Shown here in pieces: positions 1 through 6,734 of a DNA stretch of 7,501 bases. The stretch's first letter is position 1, and each line of letters opens with the position of its first letter. The stretch lies in IMG/VR virus record IMGVR_UViG_2609460344_000017; one strand, 5' to 3'. Below the pieces are notes generated by a model that saw only the letters and a program-made list of their open reading frames with translations, did no database searches and had not been told where the DNA came from. Source of the stretch: a virus (taxonomy: Duplodnaviria > Heunggongvirae > Uroviricota > Caudoviricetes). Both the position numbers and the translations under genes were made by a program.

Positions 1-396
1 GCTCCCTTTCCGGCACGTCTCATTGCCGTATCACTTCCTCCCGAAAAAGCATTAATCAGTAAAACCCGACTGCTCAGCGAGAATCGTCGAAAAGGACGAG
101 TAGTTCAGGCGGAAACGCTGGAAGCAGCGGGCCATGTGCTATTGCTAACATCATTACCGGAAGATGAATATTCAGCAGAGCAAGTGGCTGATTGTTACCG
201 TCTGCGATGGCAAATTGAACTGGCTTTTAAGCGGCTCAAAAGTTTGCTGCACCTGGATGCTTTGCGTGCAAAGGAACCTGAACTCGCGAAAGCGTGGATA
301 TTTGCTAATCTACTCGCCGCATTTTTAATTGACGACATAATCCAGCCATCGCTGGATTCCCCCCCCAGAAGTGCCGGATCCGAAAAGAAGAACTAA
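1..396 (+). CDS. insL: IS4-family DDE transposase (IS186 InsL-like), C-terminal ~131 codons; 5' end cut by the window edge
   Basis: Frame 1 has no stop from base 1 to TAA at 394-396. The translation carries the IS4-family YREK signature Y-x2-R-x3-E-x6-K (YRLRWQIELAFKRLK). The C-terminus ...PRSAGSEKKN matches what I recall of InsL. Confidence 0.85.
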   Translation, partial: APFPARLIAVSLPPEKALISKTRLLSENRRKGRVVQAETLEAAGHVLLLTSLPEDEYSAEQVADCYRLRWQIELAFKRLKSLLHLDALRAKEPELAKAWIFANLLAAFLIDDIIQPSLDSPPRSAGSEKKN

Positions 397-950: not shown

Positions 951-1302
951 CTTCTTTTCCTGCAACATCTCTCATCAGAAGTGACCCAAATTCATCCAAT
1001 CAGCACAAAAGAAACATTTAAAGCGTGAATGCTACCGAACGTTCATTTCAATTACATCGTTTTGATTTTTAACAGTTTTCACCTCAACAAATCAAATGGC
1101 ATTAGCATTCATCATGGAAGAAAGACTGATAAAAATGATCATTTTCAATGACTTATGATCACACCGGGTATTGCCAAGTCATTCCTTTTACGCCAGGATA
1201 CCCACAAGTGAGTAGTCGAGGAGAGTTTGCCAATTTTTGCGATATAAATTTCAATGTCCGAAGAACCATTAATTGTTAATTGATTCTGTATAAGGTATTA
1301 AC

Positions 1303-2400
1303 ATGACAATTTCATATATTCCTATTCTGAAAGCGAAACGTTCTGAGTTATCAGCTTTATCGCAGCTATCCATTGAAAAGAAATCAAAAATTTTGCCATT
1401 ACTCGAAATTGAACCAGTGCCAATTGACCCTGATTCAGGTATTGCCTTAAAGAGTTATAACGAGACTCTTATAGAGTTCGGAAAGAAAGTCTCAAAATCT
1501 TGCTCAGATATGCAAGGTGTTTATATTGATGGATTATTAATTGAAGAGCATTTTATTTCTCCTGAAGATCATTACCCTATAATAAATGCGGTTAATCAAG
1601 TTAGAGATATGGGGATAAGAGTTATTCCTGTCAGTTCACCAACTCGCCCATCTAACTATAAAAGAGCGATTGATGAATTAATGCAGAATGAAATATGCTT
1701 GAGATTAACCACGTTAGATCTGGTTAACCCACAATTAATAACGCATTACATTAATCATCTGGGAATTCCTTTATCAAATATTGATATAATTATTGACTTA
1801 AGAGATGAGTTAACCGAGGATAAAATTAATTCCGGCGAACTATATACTTTGGCAATGGGATTGATAAACAATCTGGCGCACCTCAATGAATACAGAAAAG
1901 TGATTCTTTCTGGGGGTTCATTTCCTACAGATCTCAGTGATATTTCTGTTGGTCTATATTCTCAACCTCGAATCGAGTGGATTTTATGGCAGAGTTTAAT
2001 GAATAGAAAAGAACTTGCCAGAAATGTGATTTATAGTGATTATGGAGTACAGCACCCCGACTTTAATAGGCTTTCGACGCGATTCCCTAGCGTATCTGCC
2101 AGCGTCAGATACTCTGGAGATAATGACTTTTGGGTATTTCGAGGAAGAGTAGCTAATCGCTTTGGTTATGAACAATATGGTAAACATAGTGAGGATATTC
2201 TTGCTCATCGAGAATATTCAGGGCCTACATTCTGTGCGGGAGATAGAGACATAGAATATTATGCAAACGAGTATCAAGCCTACAAAGCCAATCCCTCTGG
2301 TAACTATAAATTTGGTAGCCCAGAGGTATGGCGTAGGATTGGGCAAAACCATCACATAACTAAGGTTGTTGAGCAACTCGCCACTCTTTACGGGCTTTAA
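1303..2400 (+). CDS. Hypothetical 365-aa protein in an AT-rich island; possibly Beta-protein (PF14350) / sce7725-like, unverified
   Basis: ATG at 1303 with AAGG ribosome-binding site 7 nt upstream; uninterrupted 1098-nt ORF. AT-rich codon usage distinct from the flanks. No Walker, HxH, HEPN or other catalytic motif recognised. The N-terminus MTISYIPILKAKRSELSAL reminds me of Beta-family proteins (recollection only). Confidence 0.8.
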   Translation: MTISYIPILKAKRSELSALSQLSIEKKSKILPLLEIEPVPIDPDSGIALKSYNETLIEFGKKVSKSCSDMQGVYIDGLLIEEHFISPEDHYPIINAVNQVRDMGIRVIPVSSPTRPSNYKRAIDELMQNEICLRLTTLDLVNPQLITHYINHLGIPLSNIDIIIDLRDELTEDKINSGELYTLAMGLINNLAHLNEYRKVILSGGSFPTDLSDISVGLYSQPRIEWILWQSLMNRKELARNVIYSDYGVQHPDFNRLSTRFPSVSASVRYSGDNDFWVFRGRVANRFGYEQYGKHSEDILAHREYSGPTFCAGDRDIEYYANEYQAYKANPSGNYKFGSPEVWRRIGQNHHITKVVEQLATLYGL

Positions 2401-2938
2401 GTTTAACTCGAACAGCTTCACGAAGCTCGCCAACATCCATACTATTGGCGAGTTTTGACCATAAGACGCGTTTAGGTTTATTTTTCAAATTCTGTAGCTC
2501 CCCTACATCACTTAATAGGGAAAGCAATTCATCTTTCCAAAGAAGCATTGTTAAGGAAAGTTTGTCCACTTGTGGATTCAACTTGCTAGTTCGAATTGTT
2601 TTTAAATGGATACCTTGCCGTGCACCTTGCGTAACTTGCTTTATCCCCCACCATGATGGAACTATGCTTAAAGCATCATAAAGATGGCAATCAGAGACAA
2701 CCAAAGTTACTTTATCCATCACTGATGAGTAATGTTGCACCTGCGCTGGTAATCTGAGCAAGTTATCACTCTTGCTCTTCAACTCATAACCATGTATAAG
2801 CCCATTGATCACTGCTATATCAGCTCTGCTAGCCCCTAGATTCATCGTAAACTCATCAATGATTAGGGTGTCAGGATCTTTATGATGATCTCTCAGAATC
2901 TTGGCATGCACAGCCTTTCTTACATCAATGTCTCTCAT
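2360..2938 (-). CDS. 192-aa PD-(D/E)xK-type (RecB/restriction-like) nuclease-fold protein; possibly sce7726-like, unverified
   Basis: ATG at 2938-2936, stop at 2362-2360. Translation contains IIDEF ... SRADIAVINGLIHGYELKS, i.e. acidic residue, then hydrophobic-strand Asp, then E-x-K about 12 residues later, the classic PD-(D/E)xK arrangement. The ribosome-binding site is weak. Its 3' end overlaps the 3' end of the 365-aa gene by 41 bp. Confidence 0.75.
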   Translation of the reverse strand: MRDIDVRKAVHAKILRDHHKDPDTLIIDEFTMNLGASRADIAVINGLIHGYELKSKSDNLLRLPAQVQHYSSVMDKVTLVVSDCHLYDALSIVPSWWGIKQVTQGARQGIHLKTIRTSKLNPQVDKLSLTMLLWKDELLSLLSDVGELQNLKNKPKRVLWSKLANSMDVGELREAVRVKLKARKEWRVAQQP

Positions 2939-2970
2939 ACCATAGTTGCGCTTTCATCGACTCTCTCAAG

Positions 2971-2989
2971 CCATGATTCTATATCATGG
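2971..2989. promoter_or_regulatory. Perfect 7-bp inverted repeat CCATGAT-N5-ATCATGG upstream of the 192-aa gene (candidate operator)
   Basis: Exact palindromic arms at 2971-2977 and 2983-2989, 33-51 bp upstream of the start codon at 2938. Confidence 0.3.
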
Positions 2990-3243
2990 TTCGCATGAAT
3001 GCCATTTGATATGACCAGTGGTTAAACATTGCACAGAAAAGTGGATGTGTATTTTAACAAAAGCAATGACGGCTAACCATGTTGGTATGTCGATAAAATG
3101 TTTCAACGTAAGCATTATCTGTTCCGCCCTTTCAGACGGCCTCCTGATGTTCTGAGGGTGCAGAATCCCTCCGGTTAAGGATTTAATAAAAATCGTTTCT
3201 GATTTAAATCTTCAGTATTTAGTTGTTAGTCGGTTTATAGCCT

Positions 3244-3555
3244 TTATGCTTCGGCCTTATTTCTCAGCCATACACAAACCGGGCCATCTTCGGTGTCATG
3301 TATTGAACCAATAAACCATCCATTGCCCTCTGGTCGTTCCGGTTCCCATGCAGAAATATCAGCATCACACGCATCAAGGTCAGCACATCCTTCATCTCTG
3401 AAGCAGAGGACGTATTGAAGATTATTTTCCTCCATCCAGGCGTTAAACTCTTCCGTTGAAATATATTCCCGACCGTCACAGAATTTTTCATATTCAGGAT
3501 GCGTCCAGCAGCCATATTCATCACGTACTACTGGTATTTCTTTAATTTCATTCAT
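3244..3555 (-). CDS. Hypothetical prophage protein (103 aa, acidic, Trp/Cys-containing)
   Basis: ATG at 3555-3553 with GGGAGA ribosome-binding site 7 nt upstream. Overlaps the stop of the upstream gene by 8 bp, suggesting translational coupling. Last gene of the minus-strand early operon. Confidence 0.7.
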   Translation of the reverse strand: MNEIKEIPVVRDEYGCWTHPEYEKFCDGREYISTEEFNAWMEENNLQYVLCFRDEGCADLDACDADISAWEPERPEGNGWFIGSIHDTEDGPVCVWLRNKAEA

Positions 3556-3802
3556 TTCTGTTCTCCCACGTTTTCAGACTTTCACCACAGAACGGACAAA
3601 ATGAAACCCGAACTGGTAATTTAGAAAATTCACCGGAACGCAACATCACAAAATCAGGACCGCGAGTTAAACTCTCATTCCAGATTTTGTATATCAGCAG
3701 ACCTTTTCGCATCGTGTATTCAGCATCATGCTCAAGGGACTTTGCCAGTGCTGCACATGGTTCTATCTTGTTGCCATTAACCTGGCATTTTGATTCACTC
3801 AC
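3548..3802 (-). CDS. Hypothetical prophage protein (84 aa) with one CPFC motif
   Basis: GTG start at 3802-3800 preceded by a strong GAGGAGG ribosome-binding site at 7 nt. The start overlaps the TGA stop of the upstream gene (GTGA). Confidence 0.65.
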   Translation of the reverse strand: MSESKCQVNGNKIEPCAALAKSLEHDAEYTMRKGLLIYKIWNESLTRGPDFVMLRSGEFSKLPVRVSFCPFCGESLKTWENRNE

Positions 3803-4221
3803 CGCACCACCTCCTCAAAATTCCCCTGATAAAACGCCAGTACGCGCTGCATAACTTCGCTCTTCCGGCACTCGAGACAGATTATGTTCAGACGCCTGTC
3901 GTAGCGGCGTATTTCGCCATCTGGTAATGACCAGATAAGGTCCGGATCAACCGCAGATGGTTTCTTCAGCTTTGCCCTTGAGAGTTTTTTGCGGGCATTT
4001 TGCCAGTCTTTACGAGCCTGTTCAGACGGGAATAACCCGTAGCCAGAATTGTATACATCGCCACTGGCAACCAGCTCTCTGGCCAGAACGCTCATCAGAT
4101 ATCTTGTTGCCCCAGTTTTAGTTTCCAGTTGTCGTAACGTCTCGCGCCCACTCTGGCGTACGAGTTCAACAACCTGCCCTTTAATTTTTTCCCGCTCTTC
4201 TTGTGTAAAAACTTTTGCCAC
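3799..4221 (-). CDS. Hypothetical prophage protein (140 aa, basic)
   Basis: GTG start at 4221-4219 preceded by AGGAGG at 4 nt. Lies 37 bp downstream of the replication gene stop; in an operon with the two following genes. Confidence 0.65.
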   Translation of the reverse strand: MAKVFTQEEREKIKGQVVELVRQSGRETLRQLETKTGATRYLMSVLARELVASGDVYNSGYGLFPSEQARKDWQNARKKLSRAKLKKPSAVDPDLIWSLPDGEIRRYDRRLNIICLECRKSEVMQRVLAFYQGNFEEVVR

Positions 4222-4258: not shown

Positions 4259-5329
4259 TTACCCTCTGAATCCCGGCGGAATTTCGGTGTCCGGTTCAGA
4301 AATATGATTAACACAACGCTGGTTGTTCGTGCCGCTTACCGGGAGCAACCAGGGGTTTTCAAAATTCCGGTCCGGTCCAAAAAACGTCGTCGCTCGCTGA
4401 ACAAATTCCGTTCCCGTTTTCCCGGTAGCCGCCAAGTATCTTGCGTAACGCCTCACGCCATCCAGCATGGCCTCTGGTGGCACCCCCTCGCGTAATCTGG
4501 CCTTCCAGGCACTGAAAGCGGATTTCTTCGGGTTTGCCCCAGCACGCAACGGGTACTCCCGCCAGACCTGTTCGAACACATCCGGATAATCCACTCGTCC
4601 CACAGACTGCCCGGTGTTTTCCGGGACTACCCGATCGGCTTCCCGCTGAATGGCGGAATCGGCTTCGGGCTGCTGCAGTTGGTGTGATTGCTCCGGCCTT
4701 GCGGTCATCACCTGCTGCACAGCGCCCGAATCGGCTTTCAGCGCATACGCTGAATCGGCTTCCGGTGTCGTGCCTGCTGGCTGACCAAGATTGACGGTCT
4801 GAACATCCCCTGCCTGGTTCGTGGCGTTTTTTACGCCATGGACCATAGTGTTTTGATCTTCTTGATCTGTATCTTTATCTGTATCTTTATCTGTCGTGAC
4901 TCGTCGTGACATGTGCGTGACATTTCGTGACGCGCCGTGACAATCGCCATTTTGTTCCCGCTTTCTTTCCCTCTCTCGCTGCGCCCTCTTGCGCTCTGCA
5001 GGAGATTTTGCGGTTTGCGAAATATTGCCGTTGTCCTCTTTAAGCACCTGGCGTTTTTCCCATCCAGTGATTAAATCACCATCAAGTACCCGCCCCTGCA
5101 TCGTCTGCAAAATTGAATCAATTACCTCTTCTGTCACGTCGAGCGCACTTGCCAAATCTTCTGTCGTGACATCAATGTGACCTCGCGTGACATTTCGTGA
5201 CGCGCTCACCAGGAGGTGGATATACACTGCCATCACTGTTGCAATTGGCTGCCCTGACACCCTGGCAATTGTTCGCCACTTAGGGTCATTTGGCATGTCA
5301 TGCCATAATCTGAGCCAGGCGTTAGCCAT
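4259..5329 (-). CDS. Phage replication initiation / replisome-organizer protein (lambda O-like architecture), 356 aa
   Basis: ATG at 5329-5327 preceded by AGAGGTGA; an alternative in-frame GTG is at 5335. N-terminal domain, a charged low-complexity linker (TDKDTDKDTDQED, ERKRAQRERERKRE) and a C-terminal domain ending ...FEQVWREYP...KKSAFSAWKARL, which resembles conserved phage replication-protein C-termini. Iteron arrays sit inside the gene. Confidence 0.8.
   Translation of the reverse strand: MANAWLRLWHDMPNDPKWRTIARVSGQPIATVMAVYIHLLVSASRNVTRGHIDVTTEDLASALDVTEEVIDSILQTMQGRVLDGDLITGWEKRQVLKEDNGNISQTAKSPAERKRAQRERERKREQNGDCHGASRNVTHMSRRVTTDKDTDKDTDQEDQNTMVHGVKNATNQAGDVQTVNLGQPAGTTPEADSAYALKADSGAVQQVMTARPEQSHQLQQPEADSAIQREADRVVPENTGQSVGRVDYPDVFEQVWREYPLRAGANPKKSAFSAWKARLREGVPPEAMLDGVRRYARYLAATGKTGTEFVQRATTFFGPDRNFENPWLLPVSGTNNQRCVNHISEPDTEIPPGFRG
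4864..4894. repeat. AT-rich tandem repeat (GTATCTTTATCT x2 plus partial copies) adjacent to the iterons
   Basis: Exact 12-mer at 4869-4880 and 4881-4892. Encodes the TDKDTDKD linker on the minus strand. Candidate DNA-unwinding element. Confidence 0.5.
4891..4941. repeat. Iteron array 1: five tandem 10/11-bp repeats with core CGTGAC (candidate ori)
   Basis: CGTGAC at 4895, 4905, 4916, 4926 and 4936, giving a helical-turn spacing of 10-11 bp, inside the replication gene. Confidence 0.6.
5161..5201. repeat. Iteron array 2: four 10/11-bp repeats with core (C/T)GTGAC
   Basis: Cores at 5165, 5176, 5186 and 5196, plus an inverted copy GTCACG at 5133-5138. Shares exact segments CTGTCGTGAC and CATTTCGTGACGCGC with array 1. 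Confidence 0.5.
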
Positions 5330-5400
5330 ACTCACCTCTTTTGATACCGAATCTTTTTACTCACAAATTGCCGGAAGTGATCCGGTATGAATATTGCGAG

Positions 5401-5826
5401 TCAATGCACAGCCACAATATTTCCTGCAGGGCCACCACGATTCATCTGGTTGAAACCAGCGATCGCCACTGCGACAAAATCATCAGCGTCTCTCACCAGT
5501 CGTTCCCGCGTCTCCACCAGCTCCCGAAAATAAGCTGAACTGTGGCTGCGCATTCTGGCCACCAGCAAAGGTGGCATTGCCTTTTCGATCGCTGGTAACA
5601 ACGCCTGAATTTTTTCAACTGCATCAGGGGTGTCTTTCTCTACCCAGCGGAAAATTTTCTGGGTATTGCGAGCCAGGGCTTCCGGATGGCTGTCGTCATA
5701 CAGTTCTGGGAACGTCATACCCAACTCAAAATAAGCCTGGGTTATTCCAGCTGCTGGAACTTTCTCACCATCAGGATATGCCCAGGCATTCATCGCCATG
5801 CGGATGTGCTCATGTTTGATTTTCAT
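5401..5826 (-). CDS. ydaT: YdaT-like protein (Rac prophage ydaT homolog), 141 aa
   Basis: ATG at 5826-5824 with AAGAGG ribosome-binding site. Size, sequence (MKIKHEHIRMAMNAWAYPDGEK...) and position immediately downstream of a ydaS-like gene match Rac prophage YdaT as I recall it. Confidence 0.8.
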   Translation of the reverse strand: MKIKHEHIRMAMNAWAYPDGEKVPAAGITQAYFELGMTFPELYDDSHPEALARNTQKIFRWVEKDTPDAVEKIQALLPAIEKAMPPLLVARMRSHSSAYFRELVETRERLVRDADDFVAVAIAGFNQMNRGGPAGNIVAVH

Positions 5827-6133
5827 GAATCATTTGCCTCTTGATGCTTCGGGTATGATCGTTTTCGTCATTTGGTTGCTTCATCGACATATTCTGCGAA
5901 TAACATGACGAGCGTCGTAAGTATGTCCAATCAACATCAGGACGAAGTTCTTCACACAGGACACCACCTTTTGTTGCTCGTTCAATCGCAGGACATCTCT
6001 CAGCAGGCAACTGACGTACACCTTTGATCCATTGATTTACGCTTGGAGGAGATACACCTAAAAGCCTAGCCATTGCTGATTGCCCACCGACAACAGCACA
6101 AGCTCGTTTGAATGAATAGTTATCTTTTTTCAT
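5810..6133 (-). CDS. ydaS: YdaS-like Cro-type helix-turn-helix protein, 107 aa
   Basis: Preferred start is ATG at 6133-6131 with GGAG about 10 nt upstream; the ORF track's upstream start at 6154 lacks a ribosome-binding site. Helix-turn-helix region AMARLLGVSPPSVNQWIKG. Divergent from the repressor gene. Overlaps the ydaT-like start by 17 bp. Confidence 0.8.
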   Translation of the reverse strand: MKKDNYSFKRACAVVGGQSAMARLLGVSPPSVNQWIKGVRQLPAERCPAIERATKGGVLCEELRPDVDWTYLRRSSCYSQNMSMKQPNDENDHTRSIKRQMIHENQT

Positions 6134-6160
6134 CGAATGAACTCCAAAAAACACACAATA

Positions 6161-6257: not shown

Positions 6258-6734
6258 ATGCTTAGTGGTAAAGACTTAGGCCGAGCGATAGAGCAGGCCA
6301 TCAACAAAAAAATTGCATCAGGAGCCGTCAAATCAAAGGCGGAAATCGCACGTCATTTCAAAGTCCAACCACCATCAATCCATGACTGGATTAAGAAAGG
6401 TTCGATAAGTAAAGACAAACTTCCAGAACTATGGCGTTTCTTTTCTGATGTGGTTGGTCCAGAGCATTGGGGGCTTAACGAATACCCCATACCAACCCCA
6501 TCCACTTCAGATACAAAAAGTGAACTTTTAGACATAAACAGCCTTTATCAAGCCGCCTCTGATGAAAAAAGAGCAATTGTGGCTTTCCTCTTATCTGGAA
6601 ATGCTACGGAGCCTAGTTGGGTTGATCATGACGTTCGCGCCTACATTGCCGCAATGGAAATGAAGGTAGCTAACTATCTGAAAAATCAAGAATCAAAACG
6701 GAAAAGCCAGAACATCACCAAGACAGGAACTTAA
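6258..6734 (+). CDS. racR: RacR-like prophage repressor (XRE-type helix-turn-helix), 158 aa
   Basis: ATG at 6258 with TAGGAGA ribosome-binding site 10 nt upstream. Helix-turn-helix region SKAEIARHFKVQPPSIHDWIKKG. Divergent from ydaS-ydaT, as in the Rac immunity region. Confidence 0.8.
   Translation: MLSGKDLGRAIEQAINKKIASGAVKSKAEIARHFKVQPPSIHDWIKKGSISKDKLPELWRFFSDVVGPEHWGLNEYPIPTPSTSDTKSELLDINSLYQAASDEKRAIVAFLLSGNATEPSWVDHDVRAYIAAMEMKVANYLKNQESKRKSQNITKTGT

Follow-up and report, generated by a model that had tools for sequence, protein, structure and literature searches.

The stretch of viral DNA considered here, a window of 7,501 nucleotides from IMG/VR record IMGVR_UViG_2609460344_000017, is a Rac-type prophage of Escherichia coli, and carries on its minus strand a gene for a 192-amino acid member of the phage P4 cII family, referred to below as the cII-like protein. 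Structural modelling and conservation indicate that this protein is most likely a metal-dependent DNA nuclease of the PD-(D/E)xK type. Its gene overlaps, tail to tail, a gene of the beta family, and the pairing of two such genes is essentially obligatory across many bacterial phyla. Two anti-phage systems that have been described separately, Gop-beta-cII and PD-lambda-2, have this beta-cII pair as their common core. Given that both systems have been demonstrated experimentally, the pair in the prophage may be expected to form an anti-phage or superinfection-exclusion module, and it is our favored reading, held with reasonable though not full confidence, that the cII-like protein acts as a nuclease together with, or under the control of, the predicted TIM-barrel protein beta.

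A predicted PD-(D/E)xK nuclease of the P4 cII family

The gene and its parts are positioned in the window as follows:

2360 to 2938, minus strand: cII-like gene, 192 amino acids, P4 cII / sce7726 family (open reading frame list, ATG start; NF033832, PADLOC 'cll', BLASTP and RefSeq)
2729 to 2854, minus strand: predicted active-site segment, codons for residues 29-70, with E29, D40, E52-x-K54, D58, R62 and Q66-x3-Y70 (conservation and AlphaFold2 model)
2378 to 2581, minus strand: C-terminal helical basic domain, codons for residues 120-187, with conserved N121, L132, L133, W134, E137, R183 and W186
2976 to 3005, minus strand: sigma-70-like promoter match upstream of the cII-like gene, ATGGCA-18-TAGAAT, 9 of 12 positions; weak evidence, such sites being no more numerous in the scanned region than in shuffled sequence

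An earlier note on this DNA, made from the sequence alone, proposed that the protein carries a PD-(D/E)xK motif composed of an upstream acidic residue, an aspartate and an E-x-K. The segments upon which this proposal was built are indeed present in the translation of the open reading frame, IIDEF spanning residues 26-30 and SRADIAVINGLIHGYELKS spanning 37-55, which makes E29, D40 and E52-L-K54 the residues of the motif, with 12 residues separating D40 from E52. Taken alone, the motif is weak evidence: a D-hydrophobic...[DE]xK pattern occurs by chance in 28% of shuffles of the cII-like protein, and the addition of the upstream glutamate and hydrophobic strand reduces this figure to 2.7%, while the further addition of a downstream QxxxY (Q66-V-Q-H-Y70), which the note did not mention, reduces it to 0.03%.

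It is conservation that makes the case. An alignment of 150 sequences was assembled from the query, P4 cII and 148 further proteins, each representing a cluster in a library built at 50% identity. In this alignment E29, E52, K54, D58, R62, Q66 and E137 are each found in all 150 of these diverse relatives, D40 and R183 are each retained in 149 (with a single glutamate in place of D40), and Y70 is retained in 142 and replaced by phenylalanine in seven. P4 cII itself possesses the same motif residues as the cII-like protein. Such near-invariance of the motif residues is what one would expect to see if the enzyme is active, and chance occurrence of the motif, considered as an explanation, was ruled out by this conservation together with the predicted fold.

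Consistent with the conservation data is an AlphaFold2 model of the cII-like protein, computed from an input alignment of 57 sequences, for which the mean predicted local distance difference test score (pLDDT) is 94.3 and the predicted template modelling score (pTM) is 0.89. In this model two helices (residues 3-14 and 16-20) precede a strand bearing E29 (25-32), a strand bearing D40 (37-44), a strand bearing E52 and K54 (48-54) and a helix bearing Q66 and Y70 (63-73), after which come a further strand (76-82), a helix (83-92), two more strands (98-104 and 110-116) and the helical C-terminal domain (126-181). The predicted structure thus contains the alpha-beta-beta-beta-alpha-beta core of PD-(D/E)xK enzymes, with the aspartate on strand 2 and the (D/E)xK on strand 3, and places the residues named by the earlier note on successive strands, followed by Q66 and Y70 on the next helix. 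A comparison by Foldseek, put forward in that note as a check, gives a much weaker signal: no match was obtained at E <= 0.001, and the best match was to SfsA (E 0.013, probability 0.96). Taken together, the modelled structure and its placement of the conserved residues leave the PD-(D/E)xK fold of the cII-like protein well supported.

In its core fold, and in where its acidic and lysine residues lie, the modelled cII-like protein agrees with the PD-(D/E)xK nucleases SPO1766 (3dnx), the Can2 nuclease domain, NucS, SfsA and type II restriction enzymes. The protein differs from these nucleases in having no detectable sequence-profile relationship with them, and in possessing a C-terminal helical domain and an obligatory TIM-barrel partner. 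The likeness to a RecB/Cas4 core that had been suggested holds in one respect only. The presence of a QxxxY following the E-x-K, a mark of the RecB / Cas4-like nuclease subfamily, speaks for it, while conserved cysteines are lacking and neither RecB, Cas4 nor lambda exonuclease is found among the listed structural neighbors; a Cas4-like identity was rejected since the conserved cysteines of an Fe-S cluster are missing. The overall layout is therefore that of a predicted N-terminal PD-(D/E)xK nuclease domain joined to a C-terminal helical basic domain. The basic and helical character attributed to the C-terminal half is borne out, as residues 119-192 have an isoelectric point of 10.0, with 15 lysines and arginines to nine aspartates and glutamates, and helix is predicted for residues 126-181. 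This domain probably holds DNA.

By sequence comparison the cII-like protein is no orphan, as it belongs to an already annotated, named family of which phage P4 cII is the prototype, a membership that the earlier note did not catch. Specifically, the protein scores 191.1 bits (E 1.7e-56) with the NCBIfam model NF033832 ('sce7726 family protein'), for which the cutoff is 70, and its residues 1-184 align with positions 1-183 of the 184 in the model. It is likewise matched by the PADLOC 'cll' model (E 2.4e-28) and by PHROG 984, and P4 cII aligns with it in BLASTP at 28% identity over 162 residues (E 2e-17). The domain PF26915 (Phage_P4_cII) is precomputed on all listed homologues, the identical E. 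coli gene is labelled 'sce7726 family protein' in RefSeq, and the gene is annotated as 'CII phage-like protein' in phage Rac-SA53. P4 cII (NP_042034, 264 amino acids) is homologous to the cII-like protein over residues 22-183, sharing the E, D, ExK and Q residues as well as a convergent beta gene, and its C terminus is lengthened by some 70 residues that the cII-like protein lacks. The name 'cII' is misleading, because no similarity of the cII-like protein to lambda CII was found, there being no Pfam match at all.

The family is both large and widely distributed. Searches of a library of 1.8 billion representatives yielded 3459 representative clusters at E <= 0.001, and when one genome was scanned for each species, 455 cII-family loci came to light in Proteobacteria, Myxococcota, Acidobacteriota, Bacillota, Actinomycetota, Chloroflexota, lineages of the candidate phyla radiation and others. 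Neither the cII-like protein nor 39 of its relatives had a match, at E up to 10, in a copy of Pfam that does not contain PF26915. Searches of the PDB, one with a single sequence and two with profiles, returned only chance matches (CNOT6L, TAF1 and a designed enzyme), which indicates that no structure has been solved from the cII family itself. Literature searches on sce7726, sce7725, PF14350, PF26915 and MmcB turned up only mentions in genome annotation.

The beta partner gene and the convergent overlap

The partner gene, which the earlier note also did not catch, lies on the opposite strand and runs into the 3' end of the cII-like gene:

1303 to 2400, plus strand: partner gene encoding a 365-amino acid 'beta' family protein, predicted TIM barrel, no activity assigned (Pfam Beta_protein, PADLOC)
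2360 to 2400: overlap of the 3' ends of the convergent beta and cII-like genes, 41 nucleotides (open reading frame coordinates)

The beta protein matches the Pfam family Beta_protein (PF14350) with an E value of 3.8e-52 and the PADLOC model PD-Lambda-2_C with an E value of 1.8e-41, while its match to the P4 'beta' model is weak. Two surveys, one of the best 80 genome loci and one of viral contigs that started from beta instead, revealed how constant the pairing is. A convergent open reading frame of the beta family is located immediately downstream of the cII-like gene in 77 of the 80 genome loci, two of the three exceptions being contig ends, and in viral contigs a convergent, overlapping cII partner accompanies 39 of the 43 distinct beta genes, the exceptions being truncated beta genes or contig ends. 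The convergent arrangement is also seen with independent gene calls. Among complete E. coli genomes the pair is present in 93 of 5426, and both genes are full-length every time.

The overlap itself is equally constant. Of the 77 genome pairs, 75 overlap, by 11-167 nucleotides, and in every one of these (69 distinct sequences), as in the 39 pairs from viral contigs, the length of the overlap is 2 modulo 3. Since 3' ends are set unambiguously by stop codons, the overlap is no artefact of the choice of start codon, and a length that is always 2 modulo 3 means that the relative reading-frame phase of the beta and cII genes is fixed. Neither between the two stop codons nor just past them is an intrinsic terminator predicted, and the transcripts of both genes should as a consequence be complementary at their 3' ends. 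Complementary ends of this kind could couple expression of the two genes, either by antisense pairing or by transcriptional interference.

Links to Gop-beta-cII and PD-lambda-2

The Gop-beta-cII system of phage P4 protects against phages lambda and P1 (Rousset et al., 2022; PMC9122126). In P4, Gop is toxic when beta is absent, and beta counteracts Gop in the manner of an antitoxin (PMC9122126), while the trigger of Gop-beta-cII toxicity has been identified as the phage gene orf184 (bioRxiv 10.1101/2023.04.06.535777). PD-lambda-2 consists of a HigB-like protein A, a toxic helix-turn-helix (HTH)-peptidase protein B and a beta-like protein C, and C is required for defense (Vassallo et al., 2022; PMC9519451).

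A convergent beta-cII pair carried on a mobile element is common to the P4 locus and the window, and gop is present only in P4. Six-frame searches detected no Gop homologue in the window and none was found in the 80 related genome loci, while, as a control, the PADLOC gop model recognizes P4 Gop at an E value of 4.8e-70; the window therefore holds two of the three genes of Gop-beta-cII. The loci differ in architecture as well, in that the P4 order is gop (plus strand), beta (plus strand) and cII (minus strand), with a 27-nucleotide gap containing an annotated cII terminator in place of the overlap. Two small open reading frames upstream of beta in contigs L148 and L151 were considered as candidates for Gop and turned out to be a beta fragment and a probably spurious open reading frame.

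The beta protein of the window is closer to the models of PD-lambda-2 C than to that of P4 beta. This C-like protein (E 1.8e-41, as above) is all that the window has in common with the published PD-lambda-2, as profiles of A and B run in six frames found no homologue of HigB or HTH-M78 there. Elsewhere in the family such genes do accompany the pair: upstream of beta, a B-like HTH-M78 gene is found in 17 of the 80 genome loci and a HigB-like gene in nine. Furthermore, three loci picked by means of the B protein alone (L157:3213-6496, L158:3181-6352 and L159:3229-6398) each display the order HigB, HTH-M78, beta and then a convergent Phage_P4_cII gene overlapping by 50 nucleotides, and a scan of two of the three with PADLOC models bore out the presence of A, B, C and 'cll'. 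Loci of the PD-lambda-2 type thus hold a conserved fourth gene, encoding a predicted cII-like nuclease, that is unlisted in the published three-gene definition. A search for an E. coli PD-lambda-2 locus with the B protein gave more than 7750 matches, and the top 120 included none from E. coli.

Additional genes are observed directly upstream of beta at other loci, where they encode proteins with an FRG domain or an HTH-S24 (LexA/CI-like) domain (L080:7643-8470, L033:1905-2570 and L034:4521-5285), which suggests that FRG and HTH-S24 genes represent further variable front ends on the beta-cII core. The window and its enterobacterial relatives have no co-directional gene upstream of beta and present the bare core.

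Prophage setting and proposed role of the pair

Within the prophage the pair occupies an island of low guanine-cytosine (GC) content, and the remaining features of the window are these:

1000 to 3250: low-GC island holding the gene pair, 34-42% GC against flanks of about 50% (composition profile)
136 to 396, plus strand: C-terminal fragment of an IS4-family DDE transposase (PF01609, E 3.2e-14), at the left edge of the window and outside the prophage cargo region
590 to 802 (or 156 nucleotides in RefSeq), minus strand: hokD-type type I toxin gene, just past the beta promoter region
740 to 915: sok antisense RNA of hokD (Rfam RF01794, 119.8 bits)
3244 to 3802, minus strand: two small overlapping genes without assigned function between the nuclease and DUF977 genes, encoding proteins of 103 amino acids (PHROG 1372) and 84 amino acids (PHROG 4030)
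3799 to 4221: DUF977 gene
4259 to 5335: DnaT-like replication organiser gene
5401 to 5826: ydaT-like gene
5810 to 6154: ydaS-like gene
6258 to 6734: racR

The 84-amino acid protein of PHROG 4030 has a C-terminal CxxC. Relatives of the pair are located in the lysis-terminase hotspot of lambdoid phages and beside genes for type I restriction-modification (R-M) or McrBC, and a homologue of the cII-like protein, gp32 of Gordonia phage Powerball, lies near the integrase and is annotated as 'exonuclease'.

In the role we favor, beta and the cII-like protein would constitute a two-gene cargo module of the Rac-type prophage in which the nuclease does not work alone: beta would sense infection or control the nuclease, and the predicted active site formed by E29, D40, E52-x-K54 and Q66-x3-Y70 would cut DNA. 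The part of effector or toxin that the earlier note assigned to the protein is a plausible proposal, and some of the observations that follow count against a simple toxin.

Several observations weigh against the favored reading. Firstly, neither the Pfam copy nor the PDB searches connected the protein by sequence profile with any curated PD-(D/E)xK family, and Foldseek gave no match below its threshold. Secondly, the toxic component of the systems studied is Gop or the HTH-M78 protein B, not cII. Thirdly, the functional PD-lambda-2 clone (ECOR42 contig QOYB01000002, 228989 to 232396, the system ending at 229385) continues for no more than 396 bp once gene C has ended, so that a convergent cII-like gene of about 600 nucleotides with an overlap of about 50 nucleotides would, if present in ECOR42, lose its 5' third. 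Lastly, there are loci that depart from the intact pair. Myxococcus phage Mx4 encodes a cII-family homologue of 35% identity (p30, 2992-3561 on its stretch) within a co-directional run of genes and with no annotated convergent partner, and the nuclease may thus also occur outside the pair. In two metagenome contigs a disrupted beta gene lies beside an intact cII gene (L148:4563-5630 and L150:2230-3297); beta is split there into an N-terminal piece of 41 amino acids and a second piece of 234 or 299 amino acids, while the cII protein is identical to that encoded beside an intact beta in L149. Either beta has truly decayed there and the nuclease is tolerated, or the split is an error of assembly. 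An intact cII next to a disrupted beta speaks against the idea that beta restrains a toxic cII.

Many of these same observations could be accommodated if the cII-like protein were an active nuclease with an accessory or regulatory task, defense being carried out by beta, either by itself or with the variable upstream genes. The task might be the processing of a nucleic-acid signal, an action on the element's own DNA, or the tuning of beta expression through convergent transcription. That PD-lambda-2 was defined, and works, with A, B and C only, from the clone just described, that toxicity maps to Gop in P4 and to B in PD-lambda-2, and that an intact cII gene is kept beside a broken beta would all fit with such a task, as would the conservation of a fixed-phase 3' overlap without a predicted terminator. 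In P4, a mutation of the cII terminator is said to have been described by Ghisotti and colleagues in 1990 and reportedly causes a temperature-sensitive phenotype ascribed to reduced beta expression. An accessory task is nevertheless unlikely in our estimation: Gop, HigB and HTH-M78 having gone undetected in six frames, the core-only window offers no other candidate effector; the strict invariance of catalytic residues in the 150 relatives suggests that it is the enzymatic activity which selection maintains; and the argument from the clone holds only if ECOR42 carries a cII-like gene.

A second possibility is that the pair resembles an R-M system, in which the TIM-barrel beta would modify or exchange a base of the host DNA, as TGT or DpdA do, and the nuclease would cut DNA that lacks the mark. 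Tail-to-tail gene pairs are common among R-M systems, the two genes are always kept together, and beta is a protective, antitoxin-like factor in P4. The alignments of beta, however, contain no invariant cysteine or zinc-site pattern, the contigs with a broken beta still carry an intact nuclease gene, and what P4 beta counteracts is Gop, which is not known to be a nuclease. An arrangement of the R-M type accordingly appears quite improbable. More improbable still is a nuclease for phage DNA repair or recombination devoid of a defense role, to which the name 'DNA repair protein MmcB-like' given to a homologue by one source, the 'exonuclease' annotation of Powerball gp32 and the partnerless Mx4 gene would lend some support, but which is at odds with the obligatory pairing with beta, a component of two defense systems, with the occurrence of the genes in cargo hotspots and defense islands and not in recombination modules, with the restriction of the pair to a small minority of complete E. 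coli genomes (the 93 counted above), and with its location in a low-GC island.

Returning to the reading in which the nuclease and beta act together as an anti-phage module, the protein had a name and an annotation beforehand, and its identification as such is ordinary; it is the context that is more useful. What this context adds is the recognition that two separately described systems, Gop-beta-cII and PD-lambda-2, have one core composed of a TIM-barrel protein and a predicted PD-(D/E)xK nuclease, the overlooked gene for that nuclease in loci of the PD-lambda-2 type, and the conservation across phyla of a 3' overlap in a single phase. Pairs without Gop and HigB, such as that of the Rac-type prophage, offer the simplest setting in which to learn what beta and cII do, the invariant active site provides a direct handle on the mechanism of these systems, and the fixed-phase overlap presents a clean case for asking whether convergent overlap regulates a defense module. 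A broader proposal, possible though on balance doubtful, is that beta and the cII nuclease make up an ancient and self-sufficient two-gene immunity core, to which Gop, or HigB together with HTH-M78, would be interchangeable add-ons, and that the fixed-phase overlap is functional, the two transcripts pairing or colliding so as to set the ratio of nuclease to beta. Were this to prove true, PD-lambda-2 and Gop-beta-cII would be one family of systems, the nuclease component of which has been overlooked.

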